Origin: an uncultured bacterium
GTDB taxonomy: Bacteria; Planctomycetota; UBA1135; GCA-002686595
Reading direction: 5' to 3'
Length of the DNA: 64,000 bases
Assembly: GCA_943787795.1 (NCBI GenBank)
Contig: CALSNU010000002.1
Coordinates: forward strand, 192,001 to 256,000
The first letter of the stretch is position 1; each line of letters opens with the position of its first letter. Both the position numbers and the translations under genes were made by a program. Of this stretch, positions 7,784 through 60,585 are shown one piece after another. The notes under the pieces are model-generated. The model saw only the letters and a list, made by a program, of their open reading frames with translations. It was not told the DNA's origin and ran no database searches.

Positions 7784-9724
7784 TCAGTTGAAGGTGACCG
7801 AGAGACCGTTGGTGAAGTTGGAGACCGCGCCGGCGGTGCCGACGTCCCGGTACCAGGCCTGGAAGTTCCAGCTCTCGCCGGCCACCGCGGACACGAAGCC
7901 CGTGGGCTGGGGGATCTGATTCAGGTCCAGGGCCAGGGAAATGATCCCGTTGGAACCGGCGTTCTGAATCTGACCCGGGCCCACGTACCGCCCGATGCTC
8001 CCGAGCAGCAGAAGGTTGCCCTCGGAGCCGCCCGGGTTCGGGACGAAGCTCTGCGTCTGGCTGGTGAGGAAGAACGCCGCCGAGCTCTGCGGGAGGCTCT
8101 GGGCGTGGATCGTCACGTCATTGTCCGAGGCCGTCAGTGAACCGGAGGCCGACATGCGCGCCACCGACCCAGTGGAGTTCGCGTTGGCCTCGCCGAAGCC
8201 CTCACCGATGCAGTCGCCGCCGGTGAAGCCGAAGGCGTTGGCCGCCGACCATCCGCAGAGCCAGTTGTTGGCCGTATCCGGCGAGAAGGCCCCACGGTAG
8301 GGCGCGAACTCATAGAACCCATCGGCGGGCGCCGAGGCGGTGGTGCTCGCCGCGTCGTTGATCGGCGTCGGATCGAGGCTCACCACGGGGATCATGATCT
8401 TCCCGCCGCGGCTCACCGGCGTGGAGCGGGTGATGCTGGCGATGGGCGAGCTGCTGGCGAGGACGTTGCTGTTGGTCGGCGCGAAGACGCCGCGGGCGTT
8501 GGCCTCGTCGTAGGCGTTCCCCGCGAGGTTACGGAAGAAGACCGTGTCCGTGATCTCGATCAGCTTGCCGCTGGGGTCCTGCGACCGGTAGAAGTCTGCG
8601 GGGTCGACGGGCGCATTGATGGTCGAGAACGTGCTCGCGGGGGTGTTCCAGCGGTCCTCGAAGGAGAGCGTCCCTCCAGCGCCATAGCCCGACGCGCCGT
8701 CACCGTCGTCGCCGTCCGCCCGGACGACCTTCTCGCCGCAGTCCATGATGATGGAGTTGCGGATCTGCACGTTAGCGTTGTCCCGCCAGGCGGTGGCGCC
8801 GTCGCCGTCTACCGGCTGACCGATGACGGTCATGTTGTAGAGCGAGGCAGTGGTGACGGGCTGATAGAAGGAGTCCTCGGCGCCGTCCATCTCGATGCAG
8901 TTGTCGCCGACACCGGAGCCCTGGTTGGCGTTGAGGCTGTAGCCCTGGACGATGAGGCCGAACTGGGCCTTGCCGCGCCAGCCCTGGTCGATGTCGAGGC
9001 TGTCGTCGCCGATGTTCCAGATGCTGAAGTGCTTCAGGTTGACCGTGCCGCCCCAGATCTCGATGCCGTCGTCGACGTTGTTCATGATCTCGACGAAGTC
9101 GATGTCCGTGCCGCGTCCAATGCCGCCAAGGGAGAGGCCGTTGAGCTCGTTGTTGAGACCGATGACCCTGCCGCCGTAGCGAAGAGAGACGTAGTTCAGC
9201 GTGCCCGAGTCGTCGTCGTCGTTGCCGCCGCCGTACTGGGCGATCGTGCTGCCAGCCGGAGGCTGGAGGCCCTCCATGTTCCCGTAGTTCGAGCCCTTGG
9301 GCTCAGGCGAGTTCGAGGGGATCGCGTTCTCGGAGATGTAGGCGTCACCCATGATGGTGATGTTGCCCCACTCGTTGGCGGACTCACGCCAGGTGCCGGT
9401 CTTGGGGTCACCGCCGACCCACGTCGCGACGTCGGCCTTGGAGGTGAAGATGACGGGGTTGCCCGACTCGCCGAGGACGAAGAGCTGCGCGCCCTTCGCC
9501 ACCGCGAGCGAGCCGCCGACCCCGGTGTCGCTGGCGATCACCGTGCCAGCCTGAATGGTCAACGTGGCGCCGGGCTCCACGTAGACCTGGGTCTGGATGT
9601 TGTACGTGTTGTTGGCGGTCCAGGTCGTCGAGGTCGTGATGTTGGACGCGACGATGATCTCCGCAGCGCTCGACGAGGAGGCCGCAAGCGCGCCAAGAGC
9701 CAGGGTCGAAAGAGCTTTCTTCAC
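7784..9724 (-). CDS. Secreted beta-helix-like protein of the TonB-receptor-associated type, with the shared ~140-aa C-terminal domain
   Basis: The GTG at 9724 gives signal peptide MKKALSTLALGALAASSSSA. Core motifs DDSGTLNYVSLRYGG, NELNGLSLGGIGRGT and DDGIEIWGGTVN are present. It ends WNFQAWYRD...SNFTNGLSVTFN. Confidence 0.85.
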   Translation of the reverse strand: MKKALSTLALGALAASSSSAAEIIVASNITTSTTWTANNTYNIQTQVYVEPGATLTIQAGTVIASDTGVGGSLAVAKGAQLFVLGESGNPVIFTSKADVATWVGGDPKTGTWRESANEWGNITIMGDAYISENAIPSNSPEPKGSNYGNMEGLQPPAGSTIAQYGGGNDDDDSGTLNYVSLRYGGRVIGLNNELNGLSLGGIGRGTDIDFVEIMNNVDDGIEIWGGTVNLKHFSIWNIGDDSLDIDQGWRGKAQFGLIVQGYSLNANQGSGVGDNCIEMDGAEDSFYQPVTTASLYNMTVIGQPVDGDGATAWRDNANVQIRNSIIMDCGEKVVRADGDDGDGASGYGAGGTLSFEDRWNTPASTFSTINAPVDPADFYRSQDPSGKLIEITDTVFFRNLAGNAYDEANARGVFAPTNSNVLASSSPIASITRSTPVSRGGKIMIPVVSLDPTPINDAASTTASAPADGFYEFAPYRGAFSPDTANNWLCGWSAANAFGFTGGDCIGEGFGEANANSTGSVARMSASGSLTASDNDVTIHAQSLPQSSAAFFLTSQTQSFVPNPGGSEGNLLLLGSIGRYVGPGQIQNAGSNGIISLALDLNQIPQPTGFVSAVAGESWNFQAWYRDVGTAGAVSNFTNGLSVTFN

Positions 9725-9931
9725 AGCGATAGTTGGGTTGGTTTTTTTTGGCCGTTCGGAAGCGTTCGGCCGGGGGGGTATGTCGGTTCGACGCGAGGAA
9801 TCTACGGCGGCCCCGGGCGGCAAGCCTCAAGCCGGTGTGAAGCGTCCTAGAAGCGCTTGTTAGCCGATCGAAACCGGCCTTGCTGGCCACTTACGGGCCG
9901 TTTCTCGCTCTCCTGGCTGTCCCGATGATCC

Positions 9932-9976
9932 AAAAAAAAGCCGCGCGCCAGGCCCAGAACGGGCGCGGCGCACGGC
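9932..9976 (-). terminator. Rho-independent terminator after the TonB operon
   Basis: GC-rich imperfect stem at 9940-9976 followed by 8 T on the minus strand (A8 at 9932-9939), just past the TPR gene stop. Confidence 0.75.
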
Positions 9977-9998
9977 GTCTCCCCTGAACCCCTGGCGG

Positions 9999-11597
9999 TC
10001 AGCGCGCGCTCTGGCGGGCCGCCTTCTCCACGAGCTCGAGGAACCGCGCCACCTTCTCGTCGCTCTCGTATTGCAGCGACGCCTTCAGCAGCGGAATGGC
10101 CTCCGCGTAGCGCTTGCGGCTGACCAACAGCTCCCCGTGGAGCTTGGTGGCCTTGGCCTCGAAGCCAGTGATCTGCGCGGCCGTCCCATAGCGCAAGAGG
10201 GCCTCTTCGAGGCGCTCCGCATCGGCCAGAGCCTGGGCGAGGAGGATCAGCGCGTCGCCGTCCATGGGGTTCTCCGCCACGATCTGCCCGAGGGTCTCGA
10301 TGTTGGTGGCGAGGTCGCCCTCACGGACCGAGACCTTGATCTTCGCCATGCGCAGGCGATAGCGCTCCTGGTCGGAGAGGCCGTCCGCGCGGAGGCGCTC
10401 GATGCCCTCCATGAGCTCCTTGGCCGGCCCCAGCTCACCGCGCCGGATCATCTTCTCCAGCGACGTGATGGCTCGACCGGGGCTGGCGGAGGCGAACCCG
10501 TCGAGGGCTTGCAGGTAGTGCTCGACCGCGAGCTCCACCTGGCCCTGGTTGCTGTAGATGTCCGCGAGCAGGTTCAGCACGCCCTCATCCGCCTCACCCA
10601 GGCGCGTCATGATGGCGAAGCACTCCGCGGCCTTCTCGAAGTCCTGGAGACCAGACTGACACCGGCCCATCTTGCGCCAGTGCAGCGCGTTGCCCGGATC
10701 GTTCTCCGCGGCACCGGCGAAGATCCGGTAGGCCTCGGTCCAGCGCTCCTGACCCATCAGCGAGTCGCCGAGCGCGAGGCGCCACTGTAGCCCCTCGTCC
10801 GCCAGCATCATCGCCGAGCGGAAGGCGGTCTCCGCGCCCTCGAAGTCTCCGGCGCGCAGCAGGCAGCCCCCGAGCAGCCCGTAGGTGAGGCTGTCCACCC
10901 GGCCGAGCATGACGCTCTGCTTGAGCGCGCTGGCCGCCTTGTCCCACTGCTCGAGGTCGTAGTGGCAGAGGGCCAGGTTGAACCAGGCCCGCTGGAACCG
11001 CGGGTAGCCCTCGAACTCGTCGAGAGCGCGCTCGAAGGCGGCGATGGCCTGCTCGTGCCGGACCGGGTCCGCCTGATAGTGAACCTGTCCCTCCAGGAAC
11101 GGGAGCAGCGCCGAGGAGACCTTGGTCGTCTTCCTGGCGATCAGCTGGAGGGCCTTCTCCTCCTCTCCAGCCCCGATGAGCTCGATCACCTTCTGGAGGT
11201 CCTTGACATCCTCGGGGTCCACGGGCGGCTCGATGTCAGTGACCGCGAGCAGGCCGGTTGTGAACCGGCGCTGGAACGCTGTCGACGAGATGTACCCCTC
11301 CGCGATGGGCCGGTAGCGGTCGGCTCCGCTCGACGCGACCGAGGCCGTGGGCACGTCCAAGACGACCGCCTCTCCGTCCGCCTCGCCGTCCGCCGCAGGG
11401 GACTCGTCCCCCTCCTCGGCGAGGGTCGCTGAGGCCACAGCCGGGACGGCCGCGCTGACCGCGGCCGCGATGCCGAAGCGGTCGCTGGACGGGTTCGTCG
11501 GGGCCTCCGGCGCCACCGGAGCGCTGCTCGCGCAGCCGGCTGCGGCGAAGATCGCGGGAACGAAGAGGGTGAGAACGAGGCGGTTCGTGGTCGTCAT
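9999..11597 (-). CDS. TPR-repeat lipoprotein of the TonB operon
   Basis: AAAGC lipobox and multiple TPR units. The start overlaps the tonB stop. Confidence 0.85.
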   Translation of the reverse strand: MTTTNRLVLTLFVPAIFAAAGCASSAPVAPEAPTNPSSDRFGIAAAVSAAVPAVASATLAEEGDESPAADGEADGEAVVLDVPTASVASSGADRYRPIAEGYISSTAFQRRFTTGLLAVTDIEPPVDPEDVKDLQKVIELIGAGEEEKALQLIARKTTKVSSALLPFLEGQVHYQADPVRHEQAIAAFERALDEFEGYPRFQRAWFNLALCHYDLEQWDKAASALKQSVMLGRVDSLTYGLLGGCLLRAGDFEGAETAFRSAMMLADEGLQWRLALGDSLMGQERWTEAYRIFAGAAENDPGNALHWRKMGRCQSGLQDFEKAAECFAIMTRLGEADEGVLNLLADIYSNQGQVELAVEHYLQALDGFASASPGRAITSLEKMIRRGELGPAKELMEGIERLRADGLSDQERYRLRMAKIKVSVREGDLATNIETLGQIVAENPMDGDALILLAQALADAERLEEALLRYGTAAQITGFEAKATKLHGELLVSRKRYAEAIPLLKASLQYESDEKVARFLELVEKAARQSAR

Positions 11598-12280
11598 GAG
11601 TTCTTCATGTCCGGAATTTCGAAGGGGCAGCTGACCTTGTACTCCACCGGCACACCCTTCACGGTGCCCGGGAAGAACCGCCAGCCCTTGACGGTTCGCA
11701 GCACGGCGCTCTTGAGGCCGGGGCTGTTGATCTTCTTGACGCGCGGGTTCACCACCCGTCCGTTCTTGTCCACCTTGAAGATCACCACCGCGAGGGCCGG
11801 GGTGAGCTTCTTCTCCGCGGGGGACAGCTTCGCGGAGTCCTGCCGCTTCGGCTGCGGCCTCTGGTCGAGCTCGCTCGCGTCAAACAGCTGGTCGAGCCCG
11901 CCCCCCCCGCCGAGGGCCTTGGAGAGGTCGATGCTGAAGTCGCCGGCCACGGCGCCGAAGCCGGTGGCCGCGTTGGCCGCCGCCTCGAGCTGGGAGAGCG
12001 TCAGCTCCTCCACGGCGTCCTGCTCGAGCTCCGGAGGGGGCTCCTCTGGCTCCTCGGGCTCTTCTGGCTCAGGCTCCGGCTCATCCAGTACGTCCTGGGG
12101 AGGCTTCTCGGCCAGCGTATTGGCCGACCGGATGTCGGTGTCCGGGCGCTCGCCGCCCGCGATCTCGTTGATGACCGAAAGGGCGAAGAACAGCAGCACC
12201 GTCGACGCCAGGGCGCAGATCGCCACGAGCGTACGCTGGAGGGCGGCCTTCGCCGCCGCAAGTGCCTTGCGGTTCCCCAT
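11594..12280 (-). CDS. tonB: Energy transducer TonB
   Basis: N-terminal TM helix, EPEPEPEE proline/glutamate linker and a TonB_C-like FKVDKNGRV...WRFFPG domain. Confidence 0.85.
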   Translation of the reverse strand: MGNRKALAAAKAALQRTLVAICALASTVLLFFALSVINEIAGGERPDTDIRSANTLAEKPPQDVLDEPEPEPEEPEEPEEPPPELEQDAVEELTLSQLEAAANAATGFGAVAGDFSIDLSKALGGGGGLDQLFDASELDQRPQPKRQDSAKLSPAEKKLTPALAVVIFKVDKNGRVVNPRVKKINSPGLKSAVLRTVKGWRFFPGTVKGVPVEYKVSCPFEIPDMKNS

Positions 12281-12288
12281 GGGATCGT

Positions 12289-12708
12289 TCAGGCGCCCCC
12301 TTTGGTCGTCGCGATGTTCACGGTGACATTGTCGCCTGCCCGCTCGGCCTCGTCGATGACCCTGACCATCAGCCCCGCGCTCGCCTTGCGATCCGCCTGG
12401 ATGATGACGGGCATGGTGCTGTCCTCCTTGAGCTTGCGCTTGACCGTGGCCTGAACGCGGTTGACCCCGATGTTCTCCTTGTCGAAGACCACCTCACCGC
12501 TCTCGGTCACGGCGATCAGGATGCTGTTGCTCGGCAGGTCCTTGGACGAGGCAGCCTGCGGCTTGTCCACCTCGACGCCGGTCTCCTCCACGAAGACGGT
12601 CGTGACGATGAAGAAGATGAGGAGAATGAAGACACAGTCAATCAGCGGCGACATGTCGATCGTCGTCTCGGCCTCGTCGTCGCTTCCGGCGTCCTTGAAT
12701 CGTCCCAT
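12289..12708 (-). CDS. exbD: Biopolymer transporter ExbD
   Basis: IDMSPLIDCVFILLIFFIVTT motif and VIIQAD. Confidence 0.93.
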   Translation of the reverse strand: MGRFKDAGSDDEAETTIDMSPLIDCVFILLIFFIVTTVFVEETGVEVDKPQAASSKDLPSNSILIAVTESGEVVFDKENIGVNRVQATVKRKLKEDSTMPVIIQADRKASAGLMVRVIDEAERAGDNVTVNIATTKGGA

Positions 12709-12759
12709 GGTGGTTTTGGTAGTGGCTCGGCGGGGTGCTCATTGCAGCCCGCCGATGGT

Positions 12760-13527
12760 TCAGGGCGTGGTCGATGCGGCCGCGGCGGCCAGGCGCTCGC
12801 GGAGCCGCCCGGCGACCTCGCCGCGGGCAGACGCGCGCACGATCTCGCGGACCACGCGCTCGTGGTCCTCGAGCGACTTCTGGTGCCAGACCGTCTCGGC
12901 GTGGGTGAGGAAGTCCTTGTAGCGGCCAAACTTCCTCGAGAGGTAGTAGTGGAAGAAGAGGCCGGGCAGCGCGACCACGAGCCCCGTCTCCGTGGTGTAG
13001 AGCGCCTCGGAGATGCCCTCGGCGATCATGGCCATCGTCTTGTCCCCGCCGCTCCCCGCCGCCAGGGCCTTGAAGGTGGAGAGCATGCCGGTGACGGTCC
13101 CGAGCAGACCGACCAGGGGCGCCGCCCCCACGGCGATGTTCATGAGCCGGAGGTCGCGGATGAAGGGCTCGACCTCATGGGTCCTGAGCTCGTCGAACGC
13201 CGCGCTGGCGTCGACCTTGTCGGCCGCGGTCAGGCGCTCGACCTCGTCGAAGACCTCTCCGACCGCTCCCCGGCGGCCCTCCGGCTCGTGGATCCAGCGC
13301 CGCCAGGTCGCCTCGCTGATCCCGCGGAAGCCCTTGGAGCGGAGTCGGATCAGGACGCCGAAACCCAGGGCGAAGATGAACAGGGCGATCGCGGCGAGGA
13401 CGATCATGGCCCAGCCGCCCGAGAGCCAGATGTACAGGCTCGACTCCAGGGTCGACTCGGAGTCGATCCTGGCGGCGCGGGCGGCCTCCTGCAGCCGCAG
13501 GAGGAGGTTCTGGATGTGCTGGACCAC
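12760..13527 (-). CDS. exbB: MotA/TolQ/ExbB proton channel protein
   Basis: APLVGLLGTVTGM and GISEALYTTETGLVVALP motifs. Confidence 0.9.
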   Translation of the reverse strand: MVQHIQNLLLRLQEAARAARIDSESTLESSLYIWLSGGWAMIVLAAIALFIFALGFGVLIRLRSKGFRGISEATWRRWIHEPEGRRGAVGEVFDEVERLTAADKVDASAAFDELRTHEVEPFIRDLRLMNIAVGAAPLVGLLGTVTGMLSTFKALAAGSGGDKTMAMIAEGISEALYTTETGLVVALPGLFFHYYLSRKFGRYKDFLTHAETVWHQKSLEDHERVVREIVRASARGEVAGRLRERLAAAAASTTP

Positions 13528-13541
13528 CTCGGTTGTGCTCC

Positions 13542-15158
13542 TCAGGAGGCGAGCTCGGGCGCGGCGGGGTCGGTCGACGGGGCCACGTCATCCTCGGGTT
13601 CGGCAGCCGCGCTGGTCGCGGGCTCCTGCACGGGGCCGAGCATGTCACTGAGGACACGGGTCACCTCACCGCGAATCGCGTCCGGCGTCGCCGGCCCGCC
13701 GCGGTCGCCCGTGGCAGCCGCAGCTGGCCCGAACTCGTCGGACATGGCGACCTCGTTGGCGAAGCGCACCGCCGCCGACTCCATCTTCGTGGTGATCGAG
13801 CGCGCCTTGCGGGAGAGGTAGGCGTGCAGCAGCAGCGAGGGGATCGCGACGACCAGGCCGAACTTCGTCGTGATCAGCGCCTCGGAGATGCCCCCCGAGA
13901 GCTGCTTCACGTCGCCGGACCCGAAGAGCGTGATCTGCTTGAAGGTGTTGATGATGCCCGTGACCGTGCCGAGGAGGCCGAGCAGGGGCGCCGACGCCGC
14001 GCAGATCGCGATGAACGGCAGCGCGGCCTGCAGCTTGGTCTTGGTGATCAGGAGGCGCTCGTACATCACCTCCTCGATCAGGTCCCGGGACCGACCGAGG
14101 CTCGCGACACCCGCCGTGAGCATCTTGCCTGCGGGCCCGCGGAGCTCCTTCACCCGGCGCTGGGCGCTCTCCGCGTCGCCGTCCGCCACGGCGGACATGA
14201 GCGCGTTCATGGCCTTGCGACTTGGCGTCCGCACGAAGAGCAGCGTCAGCCACTTGATCACCGCGACGAGCGCCGCGAGGGCCGCCATGCCGAGGATCGG
14301 ATAGATGATGACGCCGCCCTTCTGGACGTGCTCGAGCAGCGTCTCGCGGGTGGCCTCCATCTTGTACGCGTTCCCGAGCGTGGCGTCGAAGGGGGCCATC
14401 CCGGCGCCCTTGGCCACCAGCTCCGCTGCGGCCTCCAGGTCCCCAGGCTCTGCGAACCCGCGGACGGTCGGCTCAAGGGAGCTGGCCGGGGCGCTCACCG
14501 TGCCGACGGCGAGGCCGTCCTCGGAGGCGAAGTAGGCCGTCGGCCCGAGGAGGACGAAGGTGCCGTCCTTGACGAACCCGGCGCCGTCGATGGCCTGCCC
14601 CTGCATCCGGAGGCCGCCGGCCATGTCGGTGAGGCGCTTGAAGGAGGCGTCGAGCACCCGCAGCTGCTCCGCGAAGACCTCGGCACCGCTGAGGTCCGAG
14701 GACTCCTCGGCGGCCGTGATCTCGCGCAGGAGATCCTCGTACGCCGCGAGCTCGGAGATGTGCAGCCGCGACTCGAAGTTGCGGCGGTACTCGGCGAACT
14801 GGGCGCCCAGGAAGGCGACCGCCTGCTTGCGCGCCGCGATCGAGTTACCGAGCCGGGCGAGGGCCTTGGCGCCCGCGTTCTTGTCGTTCCGCAGGGCCTG
14901 CCGCTCGGCCTCCGCGTCCAGGAGTTGGCGCTGGAGCTCGGAGACCTGCCGGCTGAGGGGGAGCTTCTCGTCGAGCGCGCGCTGGCGCAGGGCCTCGAGC
15001 TCTGCTTGCGCTGCGTCCAGGTCCTTGAGCACCCCGGCCGCGACCTCGTCGAATCGAACGTCTCGGTCCGGAGCCTCCTGGGCCTGGGCGGGAGATGAGG
15101 GCGGGGTGACCGCGACCAGGGCGCCGACGGCGACCCACTTGTTGATGTGGTGGAGCAT
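13542..15158 (-). CDS. Large MotA/TolQ/ExbB protein with periplasmic coiled-coil extension (TtpC-like)
   Basis: Signal peptide, long coiled coil, then APLLGLLGTVTGII and GISEALITTKFGLVVAIP. Confidence 0.88.
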   Translation of the reverse strand: MLHHINKWVAVGALVAVTPPSSPAQAQEAPDRDVRFDEVAAGVLKDLDAAQAELEALRQRALDEKLPLSRQVSELQRQLLDAEAERQALRNDKNAGAKALARLGNSIAARKQAVAFLGAQFAEYRRNFESRLHISELAAYEDLLREITAAEESSDLSGAEVFAEQLRVLDASFKRLTDMAGGLRMQGQAIDGAGFVKDGTFVLLGPTAYFASEDGLAVGTVSAPASSLEPTVRGFAEPGDLEAAAELVAKGAGMAPFDATLGNAYKMEATRETLLEHVQKGGVIIYPILGMAALAALVAVIKWLTLLFVRTPSRKAMNALMSAVADGDAESAQRRVKELRGPAGKMLTAGVASLGRSRDLIEEVMYERLLITKTKLQAALPFIAICAASAPLLGLLGTVTGIINTFKQITLFGSGDVKQLSGGISEALITTKFGLVVAIPSLLLHAYLSRKARSITTKMESAAVRFANEVAMSDEFGPAAAATGDRGGPATPDAIRGEVTRVLSDMLGPVQEPATSAAAEPEDDVAPSTDPAAPELAS

Positions 15159-15172
15159 GGCTGGGTCTCGCC

Positions 15173-15991
15173 TCAGTCGACCTTCACGGGGAGCTGGACG
15201 AAGGCGGCGGCGGTGTCGCCCTCCTTCATGGCAATGGCCGCCTGAATGGCCGGCGCCGCGGCGTCGTCCTGACGCCAGACGTACCCCTCGGGGCCCGGAC
15301 GCCCGGTGCCCCCGATGGTCCCGTCCTGGTTGACGTAAAAGGCAGCCGAGACGCCGAGGTACAGGACGTCGACGTTGACCGATTCGCCGTTCCCGAGCTC
15401 GCGGTTCTCGTTCGCCACGTGCACGTCCGCGTTGAACTTGTCCGCGGCGTCGAGGATCCCGGTCACGTTGACGAAGCGGCTGGAGAGGCTGAGCTTGGTC
15501 TCTGCTGGGTCCTTTGGGAGGCCCGAGACGAGCGCCGAGAAGACGTCGTTCTCACGGAGCGGCGCCGGCATCAGCGTCACCAGCCCCGCCGCGCGCTCCT
15601 CGAGGTCCCCGATCACTGCCTCGAGGGAGGCGGTCGCTGCCTTGAGCTCCCCCTCCTCGGCCTCGAGCTCGGAGGTACGCGCCGACGTGTCGTCAATCTC
15701 CCCCTTCAGAGCGTCGACGGCTGCGCGCTCCATCGCCACCTGCTCGGTGAGGATCGCGATCTGGTCGGCGAGGAACTCCTTGTCCTCCGCGAGCCGCGCC
15801 TTCTCCTTGCCGATCGCGCCCCGGAGGGTGACGTACTTCTCCATGGCCGCCCGGGTGAGCTCGACCTTCGAGTCCTGGGGCTCCTGCACCTGGGGTTGGG
15901 CCACGAGGGAGCTCGCGAGGAGCGCCGTCGCGCCGGCAAGGACCAGGGCGCCGAGGGCCCGCGGGGTGTGGTTCTGTCTGATTCGGTTCAT
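15173..15991 (-). CDS. DUF3450 family periplasmic coiled-coil protein
   Basis: Signal peptide, coiled coil and VDVLYLGVSAAFYV. Its position between the receptor and the large ExbB is typical. Confidence 0.8.
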   Translation of the reverse strand: MNRIRQNHTPRALGALVLAGATALLASSLVAQPQVQEPQDSKVELTRAAMEKYVTLRGAIGKEKARLAEDKEFLADQIAILTEQVAMERAAVDALKGEIDDTSARTSELEAEEGELKAATASLEAVIGDLEERAAGLVTLMPAPLRENDVFSALVSGLPKDPAETKLSLSSRFVNVTGILDAADKFNADVHVANENRELGNGESVNVDVLYLGVSAAFYVNQDGTIGGTGRPGPEGYVWRQDDAAAPAIQAAIAMKEGDTAAAFVQLPVKVD

Positions 15992-16026
15992 CGCACATGT
16001 CCGCCGTCCAGGCGGTTCGACTGCAT

Positions 16027-32204: not shown

Positions 32205-32332
32205 GCGGCCCCTCGAGTCCCGGGATGAACGGAAGCGGGGGCGCCGATTGCCGCCCCCCCGCTCGCGCCCTAACTTGAGGGGTCGACGGCCCGCCTCCGA
32301 ACACTCCGTTCGGGGTGCCGTCCCCCATCAGC

Positions 32333-37544: not shown

Positions 37545-37552
37545 CGGGGACC

Positions 37553-39595: not shown

Positions 39596-41002
39596 TCAGT
39601 TGAAGGTGATCTCGTAGCCGTCCGTGAAGTTGCTCGTCGCCGAGCCGCCGATGGCGTCGCGGTACCAGGCCTGGAAGCTCCAGGTCTCGCCAGCCGACAC
39701 GGCCACGAGCCCAGTGGGCTGCGGGACCTGCGTGTTGTCGATCGCAAGCGCGATCTCACCGGTGGAACCAGCGTTCTGGATCTGGCCCGTGCCGACGTAA
39801 CGGCCAATCGCACCACCAAGGCAGAGGTCGCCCTGGCTACCACCGGGGTTCGAAACGGAACCCTGGGTCTGCGACGTCAGGAAGAAGCCGAAGGAGTTGT
39901 TCGGCAGAGCGCTGGCCTCGAGGACCAGGTCGTTCGCGGCAACGTTGTTGGTACCGGAAGCGCTCATCGCGGCGCCGACGCCGGTCGAGTTGATGTTGGC
40001 CGAGCAGTAGTTCACGCCCGGGGCGACCGGACCGCTGCTGCAGATCCGCCCGTTCCAGACGCGGGGCGTGAAGACGTTCCCGGTGAAGGGCGCGTTCGTC
40101 GCGGTGCCCAGGTCCAGCGTGATGACGCCATCGGCGCTCACGAAGTTCTGGTTGGTACCGTTTCCGTTCGTGTAGTCGTGATCCATCTGGGCGCCGGTGG
40201 TGAAGTTGTCACCCACAAGCGCGATCCCAGTGGCACCGGCCGGAAGCGAGAAAGGCGTGACGAACGGGATCACAGTCTGCCCGTTCTGACCAAGGCCGAT
40301 ACCCGTGCCATCATCCTCGGCCACGAGGGTCCAGGCCGTCGGGTCATTCTCGTTCCCGGCGTAGGTGGTCGCGCAGGTGTAGACCTGAAGGCCGACCGTG
40401 GTGGTGCTCGACGTGTTCGCGAGGAGGTAGTCCACCGAGATCGGGGCCGTGAGCGTGACGTCGAAGTAGACCGCACCGCCGGCAGCACCGCCGTTGTTCG
40501 CCTGGAAGATCGACTCTGCGCAGTTCGGGCCGCCGGGGGGCGGGGGGGGCGGGGGGGTCTGCTCGGTAACGTCAATCTGACCGAAGCCGGTGCCACCCGC
40601 GAATCCTGCGATCCGAGCGTAGTAGGTGGAGCCAGCGACAATGCCGCTGGCGGTCACCGAGCTCTGGAGGCCGCAGGAGTCGTCATTGCACTGGATCAGG
40701 TTGAGCGCGTTGCAGGACCCATCAAAAATCTCAAGCGCGGTGTCGTACGACGAGCCGCAGAGCGAGAACACGAGGTCGTTCGTGTTGGCAGCGGTGATGC
40801 TGTACCAGATGTCCGGGCCGCCGCCGCCGGCGCAGCTGAAGGGGAGGAGCCCTTCGTCGATGGCCGTGGTGGTGTCGAAGGCGGTCGGGGTGCCGATCGT
40901 GAGGCCGATCGCGTTGGCGCAGTCGTCGTTCGCCGCTTGGGCGGACGCACTACCTGCGGCCACGATCGCGGCAGCGACCGTCATCGTTGTTTTCTTGAGC
41001 AT
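39596..41002 (-). CDS. Secreted Cys-containing beta-sandwich protein (1 N-terminal module) with the shared C-terminal domain
   Basis: Signal peptide MLKKTT...ASAQA, an ANDDC...DIWY...YDT...CNDD module, a poly-Pro linker, and the C-terminal domain ending YEITFN. Confidence 0.9.
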   Translation of the reverse strand: MLKKTTMTVAAAIVAAGSASAQAANDDCANAIGLTIGTPTAFDTTTAIDEGLLPFSCAGGGGPDIWYSITAANTNDLVFSLCGSSYDTALEIFDGSCNALNLIQCNDDSCGLQSSVTASGIVAGSTYYARIAGFAGGTGFGQIDVTEQTPPPPPPPGGPNCAESIFQANNGGAAGGAVYFDVTLTAPISVDYLLANTSSTTTVGLQVYTCATTYAGNENDPTAWTLVAEDDGTGIGLGQNGQTVIPFVTPFSLPAGATGIALVGDNFTTGAQMDHDYTNGNGTNQNFVSADGVITLDLGTATNAPFTGNVFTPRVWNGRICSSGPVAPGVNYCSANINSTGVGAAMSASGTNNVAANDLVLEASALPNNSFGFFLTSQTQGSVSNPGGSQGDLCLGGAIGRYVGTGQIQNAGSTGEIALAIDNTQVPQPTGLVAVSAGETWSFQAWYRDAIGGSATSNFTDGYEITFN

Positions 41003-42554: not shown

Positions 42555-42650
42555 GTGGTGACCGTGGGTGAGATCCGGCGACCCCATGCTAGCGCAGATC
42601 CCGACGAGGAGAAGCGACTTGAGCGTCAGGACCCGGTGGTCCCAGAAACA

Positions 42651-42731: not shown

Positions 42732-44513
42732 TCAGTTGAAGCTGACCTCGTAGCCGTCCGTGAAGTTGCTCGTCGCCGAGCCGCCGATGGCGTCGCGGTA
42801 CCAGGCCTGGAAGTTCCAGGTCTCGCCAGCCGACACGGCCACGAGCCCAGTGGGCTGCGGGACCTGGGTGTTGTCGATCGCAAGAGCGATCGCACCGGCG
42901 GAACCAGCGTTCTGGATCTGGCCCGTGCCGACGTAACGGCCGATCGCGCCACCGAGGCAGAGGTTGCCCTGGCTACCGCCGGGGTTCGCAACGGACCCCT
43001 GGGTCTGCGACGTCAGGAAGAACCCGAAGGAGTTCACCGGGAGGTCGCTGGCCTCGAGGACGAGGTCGTTGGCCGACACGGCGTTGGTGCCGGAGCCGCT
43101 CATCGCAGCGCCCACGCCCGTCGAGTTGACGTTCGCCGTGCAGTAGTTCGAGCCCGGGGCGATCGGACCGCTGCTGCAGATAACACCGTTCCAGACGCGC
43201 GGGGTGAAGGCGCCTCCGGCGAAGGGAGCGTTGTCCGCCGCGCCGAGGTCAAGGGTGATGACGCCGTCGGCGCTCACGAAGTTCTGGTTGGCGCCCGTAC
43301 CGTTCGTGTACGAGTGGGCCATGGTGGTGCCGGTGGTGAAGTTGTCACCAACCAGCGCCATACCGTACGTACCCGGAGCGAGGGTGAACGGGGTCACGAG
43401 ATCGACAACGGTTTGGGCTCCAACGCCAGCGCCGATGCCCAGGCCGTCATCCTCGGCCACGAGAGTCCACGCACCAGGGTTGCCCGCGTTGCCCAGGTAG
43501 GTAGCGGGAGTCGTGTAGACCGAGATCGCCGGGATGGCGCCGGCCGTGTTGAGACTCAGCTGAGCAATCGAGATGGACTGCGTGACGGTGATGTCGAAGT
43601 AGACCGCCCCGCCGGCAGCGCCGCCGTTGTTGTTCATGAAGGTCGTCTCAGCGCAGTTCGGCGCCGGGGGCGGGGGCGGAGTCTGCTCGTTGACAACGAT
43701 GGTCCCGAAGCCCGTGGCGCCGTTCCAGCCGCCAACGCGGGCGAAATATGTGGTGCCTGCCGTGACGCCGGCAACCGTGACGCCGCTCTGGAGGCCGCAC
43801 GAGTCGTCGTTGCACTCAATGAGGTTGAGCGCTCCGCAGGTGCCGTCGTAGATCTCGAGGGCGGTGTCGTAGCTCGAGCCGCAGAGCTCGAAGCGGAGAT
43901 CCTGAGTAGTGGCAGCCGTGAAGCTGTACCAGATATCAGGAGCGCCACCAGCGCACGCCCAGGCGAGGAGACCCTCGTCGAGCGCGACCGAGTTGTCGGT
44001 GGCGGCCGGGGTCGCCAGCGTGAGCGCAGCGGCGGTGGCGCAGGTGTCGTTGCTCGCGCCCGGGGGCGGGGTGACCTCGGCGATGTTGAGCGTGCCAAAG
44101 CCGGTTCCGCCGTTGAAGCCCGCAATTCGGATCAGGAACTGATCGCCGACGCTGACGCCGCTGAGGGTGGCGCCGCTCTGGAGCCCGCAGAAGTCATCGT
44201 TGCAGATGATCTCGATCGGGGCCGCACAGGTGCCGCTGTACAGGGTCAGGGCGGTGTCGTAGCTCGACCCGCAGAGGTCGATGGCGACGTCGTCGGTCGA
44301 CGCGGCGGTGTAGGAGTACCAGATGTCGGGTCCGCCGTTCGCCGCGCAGTTGAACGGGATGACGCCCTCATCGATGGCGAGGGTCGTGTCGAAGGCCGTG
44401 GCGCCGAGGGGAGCGGCGATAGCCGTCGCGCAGTCATCGTTGGCCGCCTGCGCAGAGGCGGCGCTCGCGACACAGAGCGCCGCTACGAACGTGGTGCTTG
44501 TCTTCTTAAACAT
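42732..44513 (-). CDS. Paralog of 39596-41002 with 2 N-terminal modules and the shared C-terminal domain
   Basis: Signal peptide MFKKTSTT...ASAQA, two NDxC...CNDD modules, and a C-terminal domain nearly identical to gene 2. Confidence 0.9.
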   Translation of the reverse strand: MFKKTSTTFVAALCVASAASAQAANDDCATAIAAPLGATAFDTTLAIDEGVIPFNCAANGGPDIWYSYTAASTDDVAIDLCGSSYDTALTLYSGTCAAPIEIICNDDFCGLQSGATLSGVSVGDQFLIRIAGFNGGTGFGTLNIAEVTPPPGASNDTCATAAALTLATPAATDNSVALDEGLLAWACAGGAPDIWYSFTAATTQDLRFELCGSSYDTALEIYDGTCGALNLIECNDDSCGLQSGVTVAGVTAGTTYFARVGGWNGATGFGTIVVNEQTPPPPPAPNCAETTFMNNNGGAAGGAVYFDITVTQSISIAQLSLNTAGAIPAISVYTTPATYLGNAGNPGAWTLVAEDDGLGIGAGVGAQTVVDLVTPFTLAPGTYGMALVGDNFTTGTTMAHSYTNGTGANQNFVSADGVITLDLGAADNAPFAGGAFTPRVWNGVICSSGPIAPGSNYCTANVNSTGVGAAMSGSGTNAVSANDLVLEASDLPVNSFGFFLTSQTQGSVANPGGSQGNLCLGGAIGRYVGTGQIQNAGSAGAIALAIDNTQVPQPTGLVAVSAGETWNFQAWYRDAIGGSATSNFTDGYEVSFN

Positions 44514-50800: not shown

Positions 50801-51073
50801 GTCCTGCTCGCGGCCGGTGTCCGTCGCCGGGTCTCAGGCCTGCGCTGGGCGAGCCTGGTGGTCCTGGTGGCCACGGTGCTGAAGGTCTTCCTCTACGACC
50901 TGGGCGCTCTGGAGGGGCTCGCGCGCGTGGGCTCCTTCCTGGGCCTCGCGGTCTGCCTGCTCGGCGTTTCCCTGCTCTACGGCAAGGTCCTCGGGGAGGA
51001 CTCCAGGCGCAACGGGGCCGGGGGCGATAACCTGCTCCCCCATGACGACGATGACCCACAGCCCGACGCCTGA
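47876..51073 (+). CDS. DUF2339 family polytopic membrane protein
   Basis: AGGAG RBS, WERWLG...GG..L, many TM helices and the C-terminal KVFLYDL...RVGSFLGL motif. Confidence 0.88.
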
Positions 51074-53022: not shown

Positions 53023-55187
53023 TGACACCTCATCCCGACCTCTCTGCCCTCGCCTACGACGAGGCGACGCCCGCCCAGACGGCGCGCCCGGCCGGCTCCT
53101 CCGAGACGTGGAGTACGCCCGAGGGGATCGACATCGCGTCCAGCTACGAGGCCGAGGAGGCCGACGGCGTCGTGCCCGACTCCGTGCCGGGCTTCGCGCC
53201 CTTCGGTCGCGGGCCCTACTCGACCATGTACGTCCGGCGCCCATGGACGATCCGCCAGTACGCGGGCTTCAGCACGGCGGAACAGTCCAACGCCTTCTAC
53301 CGGCGCAACCTCGCCGCGGGCCAGAAGGGGCTGTCCATCGCCTTCGACCTCGCGACCCACCGCGGCTACGACTCGGACCACCCGCGGGTTGTCGGCGACG
53401 TCGGCATGGCCGGGGTGGCGATCGACTCCATCCTCGACATGGAGGTCCTCTTCGACCGCATCCCGCTCGATCGGATGAGCGTGTCGATGACCATGAACGG
53501 CGCCGTGCTGCCGATCCTCGCGCTCTACGTCGTCGCAGCCGAGGAGCAAGGCGTCCGGCCCGAGCAGCTCAGCGGGACCATCCAGAACGACATCCTCAAG
53601 GAGTTCATGGTCCGGAACACCTACATCTACCCGCCGACGCCGTCCATGCAATGCGTGGCGGACGTGTTCCGGTACACGTCGCAGCACATGCCGCGCTTCA
53701 ACTCCATCTCGATCAGCGGCTACCACATGCAGGAGGCCGGCGCGACGCTCGACCTCGAGCTGGGCTACACGCTGGCAGACGGGATCGAGTACGTGCGCAA
53801 GGGCATCGCCGCCGGGCTCTCGGTGGACGACTTCGCGCCCAGGCTTAGCTTCTTCTTCGCGATCGGCATGAACCCGTTCATGGAGGTCGCCAAGCTCCGC
53901 GCGGCGCGCATGATCTGGGCCGAGCGCATGCAGCGCTTCGAGCCGAGCAACCCCAAGTCGCTGACGCTCCGCACACACTGCCAGACGTCTGGCTGGTCCC
54001 TCACGGCTCAGGACGTCTTCAACAACGTCCCGCGCACCATGACCGAGGCCTTGGCCGCCGCGCTGGGCGGGACCCAGAGCCTGCACACCAACTCCCTCGA
54101 CGAGGCGCTCGCCCTGCCCACGGACTTCAGCGCCAGGATCGCCCGCAACACCCAGCTCGTGCTCCAGCAGGAGAGCGGGCTCACCCGTACGGTCGACCCC
54201 CTCGGGGGCAGCCACTACGTGGAGCGCCTGACCCGTGAGCTCAAGGCGCGCGCGGACGAGCACATCGATGAGGTCGAGGCCCTGGGCGGGATGACCCGCG
54301 CCATCGAGGACGGCCTCCCGAAGCTCCGCATCGAGGAGGCGGCGGCGCGAGCCCAGGCCAGGATCGACTCCGGCGCCCAGCCGATCATCGGCGTCAACGA
54401 GCACCGGCCAGCCCACGAGGAGGACGTCCCTGTACTCTCCATCGACAACGCCGAGGTCCGCGCCGCACAGCTCCAGCGGCTCGAGCGACTGAAGCGTGAT
54501 CGGGACCCGAAGGCGGTCACGGCCGCCCTCGCGGCCCTCCGGAACGCGGCCCACAAGGTTCAGGCCGGGGAGCCCCGGACGGACGCAGAGAACCTCCTCA
54601 CCCTGTCGATCGAGGCCGCCCGGAGCCGGGCGACGGTCGGCGAGATCTCCTCCGCCATGGAGGACGCCTTCGGGCGACACCGCGCGACGATCCGGGCCGT
54701 CTCCGGCGTCTATCGATCCGAGATGAAGGACAGCAACGACAGCGTGGACGCCGCCCGCGGCGCCGCCGATGGATTCCTACAAGACACCGGACGGCGCCCC
54801 CGCTTGCTGGTGGCCAAGATGGGCCAGGACGGCCACGACCGAGGCCAGAAGGTCATCGCGACGGCGTTCGCGGATCTCGGTTGGGATGTCGACATCGGCT
54901 CCCTCTTCCAGACCCCGGAGGAGACGGCCCGGCAAGCCGTGGAGAATGACGTGCACGTCATCGGGGCGTCATCCCTGGCGGCGGGGCACCTGACCCTCGT
55001 GCCGGCGCTGCGAGCGGAGCTGGCTCGGCTCGGCCGCGCAGACATTCTCGTGGTCGTGGGCGGCGTCGTCCCGCCCCAGGATGTCCCTGCCCTCCTTGAG
55101 ATGGGCGCCGCCGCCGTCTTCGGCCCGGGCACCGTCATCACCGAGGCAGCGGTGACCCTGATCGAGAAGCTCGGCGCCGAGGGCTGA
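53022..55187 (+). CDS. mutB: Methylmalonyl-CoA mutase large (alpha) subunit
   Basis: AAGGAGG RBS at 53008-53014, [15 protein letters not shown] (Tyr specificity residue), [12 protein letters not shown] and the B12 motif QDGHDRG. Confidence 0.95.
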
Positions 55188-56549: not shown

Positions 56550-56692
56550 GGACGTCCACGCCCCTCGGCGCTGCGACGAGCATAGCCACGCCGAGGGGGC
56601 GAGGGCAATCGTCTCCGAGGTGCCCGTGGAACCCCGACGATTCGGCCGGTGAACCCTGGGTCTGCGAGCTTCGAGGCGGCATGAATGGTGCC

Positions 56693-57937
56693 ATGAGACT
56701 TGCCCCCTGGGCCCTGCTCGCCGCGGCCCTCCTCAACCACACCCCTGTCTTCGGACAGGCGGCCAGCGCCCGGCAGATGTCGCTCGGCGGCGCCGGCGTC
56801 GCCTCGGCGAAGGCGCAGAACTCGGCCTTCGTGAATCCGGCCCTCGCGCAGCGCGCTCGCGGCTCGGATCGGATCGAGATCACCGCGCCGGTCGTGACCG
56901 TCGTCGGCGCCGACGAGTCCAATCTCCGTCAGGGCGTGGAGAACCTGCAGGACTCCATCGACGCTCTCCAGGCCGGCCTCGGTGGAGCCAATGAGGCGTC
57001 GCTTCGGAGCGACGTCGCGGCGGAGCTCTCCTCCCTCGCTGGAGGAGAGGTCTTCGCCGACGCAGGGGTCGGCGCCTCCTTCGTCCTGCCCCGGGGCCCC
57101 ATCAGCCTCGGCCTGACCTGGCGTAGCTTCGTCGACCTGCGGGGGCTGACCTCGATCGACCCCGCCGACTTCACGACCATCAACAACACCGTCAACCCGC
57201 TCGACCTGGACCAGCTCTCCTCGGAGGTCCTGGTCCCTTCGGTGCGCGTGGACGAGATCGGGTTCACCTTCGCCACGGACTTCTCGTTCTTCGGCCTCCC
57301 GAGCTCGGCGGGCGTGACGCCGAAGTTTCAGTCCGTCGAGAGCCGGCTCTACTCCGTCTCCGTCTCCCAGGCCGATCAGTCCGACATCCTCTCGGGGCTC
57401 GGCGACGGAGGGACACGTCGAGATGACATCCTCAACGTCGACCTCGGCGTTGCCGTTGACCTCTCGCCCCGCTTGCGCGCCGGGATCGCGACCAGCAACC
57501 TGCTCAAGCACACCTTCGAGGCACCGGCCATCTCGGGGGTCGCGTTCGCCTACGAGCTTGAGCCCTTGACCACCGCCGGCCTCGCCTACGGGCAGGATGG
57601 CTGGATGGTCACCGCCGACCTCGACCTGAACTCGACCAGTCGCTTCGAGGGCCTTGGGGGATCTCGCTTCCTGCGCCTCGGCGGAGAGCTGAGCCTCGGG
57701 ACGCCCCTTGCGATGCGAGGCCTGCCCGGGCATCCGCACCTGAGCGACGTCGAGGGCGCGCCGAACGACGCGGTGGTGATCCGCGCCGGGTTCTTGACCG
57801 ACCTGGACTCGACGCAGCAGGACCTGTGGAGCCTGGGTATCGCTTTCCCTACCTACCTCCAGGCACCGCTCGAGTTCACACTTGCGGTTGGCGGCGAGGC
57901 CTTCGGCGCCGGCCTGCAGTTCGGTTGGTCGATCTGA
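56693..57937 (+). CDS. Outer-membrane beta-barrel protein, TraF_2/FadL/PorV-like clan
   Basis: Signal peptide, ARQMSLGGAGVA...NPA N-terminal motif, amphipathic strands and an aromatic C-terminus (LQFGWSI). Confidence 0.75.
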   Translation: MRLAPWALLAAALLNHTPVFGQAASARQMSLGGAGVASAKAQNSAFVNPALAQRARGSDRIEITAPVVTVVGADESNLRQGVENLQDSIDALQAGLGGANEASLRSDVAAELSSLAGGEVFADAGVGASFVLPRGPISLGLTWRSFVDLRGLTSIDPADFTTINNTVNPLDLDQLSSEVLVPSVRVDEIGFTFATDFSFFGLPSSAGVTPKFQSVESRLYSVSVSQADQSDILSGLGDGGTRRDDILNVDLGVAVDLSPRLRAGIATSNLLKHTFEAPAISGVAFAYELEPLTTAGLAYGQDGWMVTADLDLNSTSRFEGLGGSRFLRLGGELSLGTPLAMRGLPGHPHLSDVEGAPNDAVVIRAGFLTDLDSTQQDLWSLGIAFPTYLQAPLEFTLAVGGEAFGAGLQFGWSI

Positions 57938-57981
57938 CCGGCCCTCCGTCCCTCCCTCTAAACACCCATCGCAAGCGACCC

Positions 57982-58719: not shown

Positions 58720-58734
58720 CCAGCCCGGCGCGGC

Positions 58735-59400: not shown

Positions 59401-59513
59401 AGGCGCACCCTAACCGGGAGCGGCCAGCGCCCGCGAGCGGCCCCTGGGATCCTGGGCGCGACCGACCACGATTCGGGACAGCCGCCGCCTGCAGCTCGCG
59501 CCGTCAACAACGA

Positions 59514-59552
59514 GCGCGGCCCCCCGGCGAATGCATTGCCGGGGGGCCGCGC
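59514..59552 (-). terminator. C6/G6 hairpin downstream of C-terminal-domain gene 4
   Basis: gcgcggccccccggc-gaatgcatt-gccggggggccgcgc has perfect 15-bp arms, about 20 nt past the stop. Confidence 0.65.
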
Positions 59553-59571
59553 CCACTGATGCAGGATGCGG

Positions 59572-60585
59572 TTACTCGAACGTCACGCTGGTGGCGTTCG
59601 AGAAGTTGCTCGTTGGCTGCGGGTTCGCGTCGCGAAACCAGACCTGGAAGTTCCAGGTCTGACCCGCGAGGACCGCGCCGTTGTAGGGCGGCGGGAACGA
59701 GTTCAGGTCGACCTCGAGCTCGCGAAAGCCGCTGGTCCCGCTGTTGAAGAGAGTGGACTCCATACGGAGCACCGACCCGTCGAGGCAGAGCGTCCCTTGG
59801 CTGCCCCCGGCCCTGGGCGTCGAGCCCTGAGTCTGCGATGCGAGGACCATCCCCAAGGCGCCAAGAGGCAACCGTCCCGCGCGGAGGCGCAGGTCGTTGG
59901 CTCCCAGGTCCTCGAAGCCGACCGCGCTGAGCCGGGCCGAATCGCCGCCTGAGTTCAAGGTCGCCGGTGCGCAGTAGTTCTCGCCGATGAATGAAGCGGA
60001 CAGAGGAGTCGCGAGCGACGTTCCCCCCTGAGTCCCCGGCAGGAAGAGATGAACGCGGTCCATCATGAACCCCTGACTCCGTGCCGAGAACTGGAGCGTG
60101 TTCAGGCCGGAGTTGAGATCGAAGCGCGCATCGGTGTACGAGGGACCGGGGAGCTCGAAGCGCGACTCCCAGTTCCAGTTGCCCGGCGTGCTCGGGTTGT
60201 TGGAGAACATCTTGATCCAGGGCCCGTTGTTCATCCGGATCCAGGTGTCGTTCTCCATCGTCGGGTCCGGGTCATCATGCCGATTGCGGAGCCGGACGAT
60301 GTACTCACCCGGGTTCGACGCGAGGATCTGGTAGGTCAGGACCGCGTTCCCGGGGCTGTTGAAGTAGTTGGGGCCGTTCCAGCGGAGGAACCCGTCGCCG
60401 CTGAAGCCGGACGGGGAGCCGGGCGAGGCCCACCCGTTCGGCCCCTTGTCCTCGATCTCGATGGCGATCATGCCGTCGTCCTCGAGGTATTGAGCCGAGG
60501 CCGTCTCGACGGCGATCAGTGGTGCGATGGCGGCGGCGACCAGCGTGCCCCGCGCGGTCTTTCGAATCGTTGCGATGAGAGTCAT
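59572..60585 (-). CDS. Secreted CBM-like jelly-roll protein with the shared C-terminal domain
   Basis: Signal peptide ending ASAQ, an IEIED...GFSGDGFLRW...G.NTL.FSARS.GF.MDR module, then NYC...WNFQVWFRD...SNFSNATSVTFE. Confidence 0.85.
   Translation of the reverse strand: MTLIATIRKTARGTLVAAAIAPLIAVETASAQYLEDDGMIAIEIEDKGPNGWASPGSPSGFSGDGFLRWNGPNYFNSPGNAVLTYQILASNPGEYIVRLRNRHDDPDPTMENDTWIRMNNGPWIKMFSNNPSTPGNWNWESRFELPGPSYTDARFDLNSGLNTLQFSARSQGFMMDRVHLFLPGTQGGTSLATPLSASFIGENYCAPATLNSGGDSARLSAVGFEDLGANDLRLRAGRLPLGALGMVLASQTQGSTPRAGGSQGTLCLDGSVLRMESTLFNSGTSGFRELEVDLNSFPPPYNGAVLAGQTWNFQVWFRDANPQPTSNFSNATSVTFE

Follow-up and report, generated by a model that had tools for sequence, protein, structure and literature searches.

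The described systems that come closest to the one considered here are type IX secretion (T9SS), PEP-CTERM sorting by exosortases, the dockerin–cohesin pair, and the autotransporters of type V secretion. The type A C-terminal domain (CTD) of T9SS cargo is the Por_Secre_tail family (TIGR04183 / PF18962), and type B corresponds to TIGR04131. PEP-CTERM proteins end in a short motif followed by a transmembrane helix and a basic tail, dockerins are calcium-binding helical modules of ~70 amino acids (aa) that are mostly C-terminal with occasional exceptions, and the translocator of an autotransporter is a C-terminal outer-membrane beta-barrel of ~250–300 aa. Dockerins and SLH domains also tolerate N-terminal placement, and carbohydrate-binding modules (CBMs) occur at either end, internally and in tandem. 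Here we describe another C-terminal domain, designated tail A, found on four putatively exported proteins encoded in a 64,000-nucleotide stretch of DNA from an uncultured planctomycete (the window; positions 192,001 to 256,000 of contig CALSNU010000002.1, assembly GCA_943787795.1). With a probability of about 55%, we propose from comparative evidence that tail A is a shared targeting module that delivers exported proteins to a single envelope partner. The proposal is based on its single copy per protein, its fixed position, its secretome-type cargo, its conserved polar face, the scattering of its genes, its distribution over lineages, and its interchange with a second tail.

The window belongs to a genome of 4.71 Mb in 8 contigs (85% complete) from a Saltatorellus-like lineage. 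All four genes are present on the minus strand as intact open reading frames (ORFs), at the coordinates that an earlier annotation made from the letters alone (the first-pass annotation) had assigned to them. The genes, their tails and their putative signal peptides are as follows.

7784..9724, minus strand: gene 1, an ORF of 646 aa with a GTG start (the longest ORF extends to 9823), predicted to be exported and ending in tail A
7787..8230, minus strand: tail A of gene 1, 148 aa, profile match at E 8.4e-76; the stop codon is at 7784-7786
9662..9724, minus strand: putative Sec signal peptide of gene 1, ~21 aa, MKKALSTLALGALAASSSSAA, called by our own rule and by eye, boundary approximate
39596..41002, minus strand: gene 2, an ORF of 468 aa with a GBD_T9SS_assoc-like module and a sandwich module, then tail A
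39599..40042, minus strand: tail A of gene 2, 148 aa, profile match at E 6.7e-82; the copy used for the AlphaFold2 model
40940..41002, minus strand: putative signal peptide of gene 2, ~21 aa, with an ASA end before Q, approximate
42732..44513, minus strand: gene 3, an ORF of 593 aa (the longest ORF extends to 44555) with two GBD_T9SS_assoc-like modules, then tail A
42735..43178, minus strand: tail A of gene 3, 148 aa, profile match at E 1.1e-81
44451..44513, minus strand: putative signal peptide of gene 3, ~21 aa, approximate
59572..60585, minus strand: gene 4, an ORF of 337 aa (the longest ORF extends to 60633), predicted to be exported and ending in tail A
59575..60018, minus strand: tail A of gene 4, 147 aa, the copy that diverges most, profile match at E 1.1e-68
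60493..60585, minus strand: putative signal peptide of gene 4, ~31 aa, with an ASA end before Q, approximate

The first-pass annotation had claimed that these genes share one C-terminal domain, that the domain bears the motifs NS[TG]G, LP, SQTQ, GGSxGxL(C)L.G, W.FQ.W[YF]RD, SNF, and F-x-stop, that it follows three unrelated types of passenger, that it has no transmembrane anchor, and that all four proteins begin with Sec-type signal peptides. The shared domain was borne out by aligning the four terminal 148-residue stretches, which gave 45 invariant columns and a mean column identity of 73%, and the motifs are present as written. Identity to the gene 1 copy was 57, 58, and 40% for genes 2, 3, and 4, respectively, and the tails matched the four-sequence profile at E 1e-68 to 7e-82. 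Both conserved cysteines are missing from the gene 1 copy and are retained in the other three. The three passenger types were recovered by BLAST clustering, which placed genes 2 and 3 together, left gene 1 as a singleton, and joined gene 4 to one paralogue elsewhere in the genome. Pfam agreed, as a GBD_T9SS_assoc match was confined to genes 2 and 3 among the four proteins; against PF23759 gene 3 scored E 6.1e-12 and gene 2 scored E 9.6e-5, under the curated cut-off. The passenger of gene 1, previously described as beta-helix-like, has no Pfam match except a weak one to CBM49 (E 0.18), and that of gene 4 has none beyond a weak match to GH115_C (E 0.064). Gene 4 has homologues that share 62-90% identity with its tail region (query residues 195-337), every one annotated as hypothetical. 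The lack of a transmembrane anchor agrees with the all-beta AlphaFold2 model described below. The claim about signal peptides held for three of the four genes under our strict rule; the N-termini of all four look typical by eye, and gene 1 fails because the rule did not try its GTG start.

Many more copies had been predicted genome-wide, and a search of the window genome with the four-tail profile returned 101 matching ORFs, the same 101 being recovered by our own hmmsearch over stop-to-stop frames. A significant tail A domain was present in 100 ORFs, each with exactly one domain and never in tandem. In 97 of these 100 the domain ends 0-2 residues from the stop codon, and 91 hold near-full-length C-terminal copies. 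Across these 91, identity is 80% or higher in 28 columns, including N18 (87 copies), R81 (83), Q124 (84), R128 (90), D129 (89), and N138 (86); the two cysteines of the conserved pair are kept in 81 and 88 copies, and the final conserved Phe is the second-to-last residue in 54. Mean pairwise identity was 42%, so the copies are not recent duplicates. Together with the 9,696 representatives found worldwide (see below), this level of divergence speaks against a domain limited to a few recent paralogs. The first-pass annotation had also asked whether the domain is always C-terminal. It nearly always is: beyond the 97 ORFs of the window genome, 147 of the best 150 of the 9,696 worldwide representatives terminate within 3 residues of the protein end by our own count. 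Two of the non-terminal cases (P0142 and P0049) are artefacts that break off into out-of-frame text, and rare real N-terminal placements exist, which are weighed below.

Genes for tail A proteins are dispersed over the genome. With a crude gene call, 93 of 3367 called genes (~2.8%) carry the domain and only 8 adjacent pairs occur among the 93. No neighbour family was enriched around these 93 genes; the best raw p-value among ~320 neighbours was 0.004, which is not significant after multiple testing. A scattered arrangement of this kind is the pattern expected of the genome-wide cargo of one pathway.

The passengers were then compared for the 95 tail proteins with a passenger of at least 40 aa, with Pfam run on the full proteins at E up to 0.001. 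The 95 passengers fell into 49 BLAST clusters, 41 of them singletons, which extends to the whole genome the passenger diversity noticed in the window. Pfam families were matched in 49 of the 95 proteins, the remaining 46 having no hit, and no Pfam family ever covered the tail region. The most frequent matches were GBD_T9SS_assoc (n=12) and FG-GAP repeats (n=11). Peptidases were represented by M12B (2), M43, M14 (2), S8 (2), and trypsin-like (S1) proteins, besides S9- or esterase-like proteins; other enzymes were endonuclease I, GH16, SASA esterase, and GSDH (2); and binding types comprised C-type lectin (2), legume lectin, LamG (2), LTD, NIDO, and collagen. Most proteins of the genome that are plainly extracellular hydrolases, lectins, or adhesin-like are among those with tail A. 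Signal peptides were called by two crude rules of our own, one permissive and one strict, rather than by SignalP. Under the strict rule, 44 of the 93 tail genes and 424 of the 3274 others were positive (odds ratio 6.0, p 3e-15), an enrichment in line with the co-occurrence that the first-pass annotation had suggested checking. The permissive rule was rejected as a measure because it flagged 44% of all proteins.

Outside the window genome, a worldwide search at E up to 0.001 gave 9,696 representatives (at 50% identity), of which 2,031 matched at 1e-30 or better. Named records with tail A come from Planctomycetota metagenome-assembled genomes (MAGs), from Saltatorellus ferox Poly30, and from one MAG labelled Paracoccaceae. 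The cultured Saltatorellus ferox has at least 150 copies, as all 150 candidates that were scored, of 386 at first look, match at E 1.6e-39 or better. In a sample of the phylum, tail A was found in 21 of 401 genomes, among them 11 of 12 from the window's family, 0 of 11 from three sister families, and 4 of 8, with weak scores, from a distant family. In a sample of the order (61 genomes), 10 of 11 family members had from 40 to at least 65 matches each, and just 4 genomes outside the family had 1-2 copies. Tail A is therefore typical of one Planctomycetota family, with a distribution close to all-or-none. The MAG labelled Paracoccaceae (Alphaproteobacteria) holds at least 5 tail A genes with 55-57% identity (L065, L089, L090, L101, and L102); this is most likely a mislabelled or contaminated bin rather than an occurrence outside Planctomycetota.

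An AlphaFold2 model built with 62 aligned copies was all-beta, with a pLDDT of 95.2 and a pTM of 0.89, and we confidently assign tail A to a predicted immunoglobulin (Ig)/macroglobulin-like beta-sandwich of ~145 aa. The comparison of this model with known structures, which the first-pass annotation had recommended, gave no specific relative. Foldseek found nothing in the PDB at E 0.001 or better for tail A, nor for the second tail described below (tail B), and a profile search of PDB sequences gave nothing below E 0.3 for either. Exhaustive VIA-align returned generic Ig, FN3, and macroglobulin neighbours for tail A, the best at Z 8.2, which is the background level. Neighbours this generic name the fold class and not the function. 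Catalogue searches were similarly empty: in the four window proteins, no model from Pfam or NCBIfam lay over the tail at E up to 1, and an hmmscan of the 62 copies against Pfam-A and NCBIfam identified no family, stray matches being CBM49 at E 0.11 (1 of 62) and a T5SS/PEP-CTERM-associated repeat at E 0.0014 (one copy). The earlier statements that no characterised family was known for the domain, and that it matches no T9SS CTD or PEP-CTERM motif, are thus upheld by these searches, in which no such model appeared among the 62 copies. The nearest ESM Atlas clusters are unnamed Planctomycetota proteins without a common Pfam family, and the public annotations that we saw for matching proteins are either hypothetical or taken from the passenger alone. 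Full-text literature searches found no description of such a C-terminal domain, and a term search found no mention of one in the searchable portions of three papers on the Saltatorellus clade (10.1101/817700, PMC11032199, and 10.64898/2026.10.26.761892).

A generic fold without a specific relative (best Z 8.2) is what might be seen if tail A were a structurally inert terminal domain, a stabilising cap or spacer spread by recombination and lacking a shared partner, and the search for machinery reported below, which found none, is compatible with that idea as well. We regard it as the least likely explanation and as highly improbable, since ~28 columns with at least 80% identity across 91 paralogues would not be expected of such a domain, and since it would not remain single and terminal, nor persist at tens to hundreds of copies per genome throughout a family.

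The size of the sandwich also invites comparison with CBMs. The weak structural neighbours (Z ~7) include CBM56 and further CBM or dextranase accessory domains, Trp, Arg, Asp, Asn, and Gln residues are conserved, and hydrolases are present among the cargo, so tail A might be a lectin- or CBM-like module that binds an external polymer, such as algal or prey glycans or marine particles, and concentrates the enzymes on food. This is unlikely, in our view. Carbohydrate-active enzymes (GH16, SASA) account for only a few of the 95 cargo proteins; the majority are proteases, lectins, FG-GAP proteins, or proteins without an assignment. Unlike CBMs, tail A occurs singly and at the terminus in 97 of 100 ORFs; it is carried by ~2.8% of the called genes, and the best CBM match was CBM49 at E 0.11.

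Evidence of a different kind for the targeting reading came from genomes without tail A. Relatives of the gene 2 passenger are abundant in 4 of 5 such genomes, where passengers of this type end instead in tail B, a beta-rich module of ~110-125 aa at the C-terminus. A first tail B profile, built from 5 sequences, matched 106, 72, 71, and 24 times in four sister genomes and not once in the window genome, and tail B belongs to no Pfam or NCBIfam family. At 14 of 20 loci the protein as read ends within 22 residues of the match, the other 6 being misframed readings. In the phylum sample, tail B was found in 81 of 401 genomes, including 11 of 11 from the three sister families, and was present at low copy in the window's own family; the window genome itself has a few tail B-like ORFs. 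The passenger of gene 1 provided a direct view of the exchange. Its homologues, presumed orthologues, share 66% (G403), 65% (G406), and 49% (G157) identity with it and retain the junction motif NNWLxxW[ST]AxxAFG[FL]T, after which another tail follows. In G403 this is a canonical tail B (i-E, the independent E-value, 8.4e-12; residues 541-648 of 649), and in G406 and G157 it is a tail B-like variant recognised by eye, which the small tail B profile does not score. The passenger of gene 4 was not found in five other genomes.

Tail B was also modelled as a confident sandwich (pLDDT 89.2), with MG domains of alpha2-macroglobulin as its best VIA-align neighbours (Z 10.3), and by our own count the two tails share 26 of their top 50 structural neighbours. 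At the level of sequence, the first 5-sequence tail B profile showed no signal against tail A, a result superseded by better alignments. The whole tail A alignment reached only 14.6% probability against tail B in hhalign, colinear over 119 columns. The 15 most divergent tail A copies of the window genome, which have FCP or FTP ends and match the tail A profile at E 3.4e-8 to 4.9e-24, reached 84.4% probability against tail B (E 7.1e-6, 118 columns). A 633-aa ORF of the window genome (G000:C3:165324-167226, plus strand) has a C-terminus with weak similarity to each tail (E 3.5e-4 for tail A, E 6.8e-3 for tail B) and is possibly an evolutionary intermediate between them. Tails A and B are homologous through the divergent tail A copies and form one Planctomycetota C-terminal sandwich superfamily; profile-profile homology, fold, position, and passengers are common to both. 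Like tail A, tail B lies at the extreme C-terminus, is expanded (24-106 matches per genome) and uncatalogued, and has the same passengers and the same fold neighbourhood. Unlike tail A, it is shorter, lacks the GRYVG-loop region and the NSxG, SQTQ, and W.FQ.WYRD signatures, and is much more widely spread (81 versus 21 of 401 genomes). The first-pass annotation had taken tail A to be a lineage-specific signal; as an isolated invention of the lineage it did not survive, tail A being one hyper-expanded branch of the wider superfamily. What is new here is the presence of tail B on the same passengers in sister families, the swap of tails at one junction, and the divergent copies that link the two. 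Homologous tags that replace each other on homologous passengers are stronger comparative evidence than copy number alone. The same exchange, made by whole families on the same passengers, would be odd for a module specific to an external substrate.

If tail A is a targeting module, its proteins would cross the inner membrane by Sec, after which the tail would fold in the periplasm as an Ig/macroglobulin-like sandwich that in most copies is held by a single disulfide. Its conserved polar face would be recognised by one common outer-membrane partner, which would carry the passenger over the outer membrane or onto it for display or release. Periplasmic folding, the disulfide, the shared partner, passage over the outer membrane or attachment at the surface, and cleavage, if any, are what we infer from the comparisons given above.

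The switch between tails A and B across families would equally fit a change of receptor for a module that only retains proteins at the surface. In this alternative, which is the main rival, tail A would act non-covalently in the manner of a dockerin or SLH domain, binding one surface receptor (a scaffold, lipopolysaccharide, or an envelope glycan) and holding secreted enzymes and adhesins there with no part in the crossing of the outer membrane. The invariant polar and aromatic residues (N18, R81, Q124, W126, R128, D129, and N138) and the predicted disulfide are what a stable binding domain outside the cell usually has, N-terminal placement, though rare, is tolerated, and the fold lies in a neighbourhood of Ig, macroglobulin, and cohesin-like domains, tail B having a cohesin module among its Foldseek matches at E 5e-3. 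Even so, we consider retention doubtful, because its position is more strongly biased than that of known binding modules and tandem copies never occur, because no candidate receptor with repeated partner modules was seen, and because the passage of ~100 folded proteins over the outer membrane would be left unexplained.

Several of our observations weigh against the targeting reading. A pure C-terminal signal should not tolerate N-terminal placement, and such placement does occur. The only non-terminal full-length tail A of the window genome lies in a minus-strand ORF at G000:C6 (match C6:244056-244484), in which a signal peptide is followed by tail A and then by a 111-aa module with a CxxCH haem-binding motif; and among the best 150 worldwide matches, P0092, from another source, has a similar N-terminal tail A and a different, unnamed C-terminal part. 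The genome copies have no Pro/Gly/Ser-rich or otherwise distinctive linker preceding tail A. T9SS tails are probably less conserved than tail A (42% mean pairwise identity), and the high conservation of tail A, with its invariant polar residues and predicted disulfide, would also suit a ligand-binding module. Our signal peptide calls are crude: under the permissive rule, 93 of 100 tail ORFs were positive, yet so were 1492 of 3367 proteins overall.

No partner machinery for tail A was found among SprA, PorV, exosortase, Peptidase_C25, and the TraF_2 barrel, which likewise counts against targeting. For SprA_N/SprA, PF14349 gave 0 hits in the window genome. The further searches for SprA and PorV (TIGR04189 and NF033710) were each negative in 5 of 5 tail-rich genomes, including the complete S. 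ferox chromosome. As none of the control genomes reached the cut-off, these negatives do not prove that the genes are absent. The model for Por_Secre_tail (TIGR04183) had one borderline match in the window genome (G000:C4:426163-426420, plus strand; 21.4 bits, E 8.3e-4), inside an unrelated 1292-aa frame. Exosortase (PF09721) had 0 hits in the window genome, which is 85% complete, and was found in 2 of 11 sampled genomes of the window's family; here the control genome matched.

The first-pass annotation had suggested looking for co-occurring outer-membrane barrels or peptidases, and the candidates tried did not follow the tails. Peptidase_C25 (PF01364) was rejected because it is present in 225 of 401 genomes and common in families without tails; it was not found in the window genome nor in 6 other tail-rich relatives of the family. 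The TraF_2 outer-membrane barrel encoded near gene 4 (56681-57937, plus strand) was rejected as well, being found in 1 of 12 genomes of the window's family (in the window's own genus only) versus 22 of 23 genomes of a distant tail-less family, a patchy distribution.

Within the order, exosortase and tail A are nearly complementary. By family, exosortase was found in 12 of 12 (f2), 10 of 11 (f108), 3 of 12 (f3), and 1 of 4 (f4) genomes; the exosortase-rich sister families carry tail B instead of tail A, and G208, the one member of the window's family without tail A, has exosortase. Inside this family, G208 and G397 hold many tail B candidates and few or no copies of tail A. Exosortase was considered as a reader of tail B and was dropped, since f3 and f4 have tail B and are mostly without exosortase, for which reason the link is probably a phylogenetic coincidence. 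Exosortase is thus probably unrelated to either tail, even though tail B-rich genomes do have it.

If the targeting reading is extended to both tails, tails A and B could be the address labels of an undescribed Planctomycetota pathway for export across, or attachment to, the outer membrane, distinct from both type IX secretion and exosortase sorting, that serves ~3% of the proteins in these genomes, and the wholesale switch from tail B to tail A in the Saltatorellus family would be the trace of a co-evolved shift in the receptor. We put this wider proposal forward tentatively. Little is understood of how Planctomycetota get folded proteins across their outer membrane or onto it, and tail A, if it serves for sorting or anchoring, would supply the list of cargo for an undescribed pathway throughout a bacterial lineage. 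A tail A model would improve the annotation of 9,696 representative proteins (at 50% identity), and the domain is a handle for finding the machinery, by pull-downs or through genes that switch with tails A and B.

The surroundings of the four genes were also recorded. Immediately upstream of gene 1, and on its strand, is a cluster for TonB-type energy transduction (9999-19143, minus strand) that encodes a TonB-dependent receptor, a DUF3450 protein, two MotA/ExbB-family proteins, ExbD, a TonB_C protein, and a tetratricopeptide repeat (TPR) protein. Between genes 2 and 3 is a gene for a 424-aa signal-peptide protein with a DUF1573 domain (41313-42587, minus strand). Elsewhere in the window, two very large proteins of the methylmalonyl-CoA mutase family are encoded on the plus strand (32315-35788 and 51042-55187); one is fused to B12-binding and MeaB GTPase domains in an IcmF-like architecture, and the other, of 1381 aa, has a long N-terminal region without a Pfam hit.

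Set beside the described systems, tail A departs most clearly from the autotransporters: it has 145 aa and is modelled as a two-sheet sandwich, unlike an autotransporter translocator, and no autotransporter family was matched in the 62 tails or in the 95 cargo proteins. It differs from CBMs in its fixed terminal position, in the small number of carbohydrate-active enzymes (CAZymes) among the 95 passengers, and in having no CBM family match beyond CBM49 at E 0.11. The likeness to the dockerin–cohesin pair lies in one small module being placed on dozens of secreted enzymes, which dockerins bring to a shared partner at the cell surface; tail A differs in being a beta-sandwich, and no scaffold with repeated receptor modules was identified. 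PEP-CTERM likewise tags the C-terminus of many signal-peptide proteins whose passengers are unrelated, and is typical of its lineages, whereas tail A is a soluble all-beta domain of 145 aa ending in ..V-T-F-[QEN], no NCBIfam PEP-CTERM model matched any of the 62 copies, and exosortase was not found in the window genome or in 9 of the 11 sampled relatives.

The closest parallel is the T9SS CTD. The differences are that none of the 62 tail A copies matched the CTD models at E up to 1, that tail A has ~145 aa compared with the 72 model positions of TIGR04183, and that it is probably more conserved, with a cysteine pair and rare N-terminal placement. Common to both are a single Ig-like beta-sandwich at the extreme C-terminus of signal-peptide-enriched cargo, tens to hundreds of copies per genome, scattered genes, and unrelated passengers that include proteases, nucleases, lectins, and adhesin-like repeats; some passenger modules of tail A even bear the T9SS-derived Pfam name GBD_T9SS_assoc. 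Judged by its sequence, tail A stands outside the T9SS CTD family, and it resembles that family in its logic.

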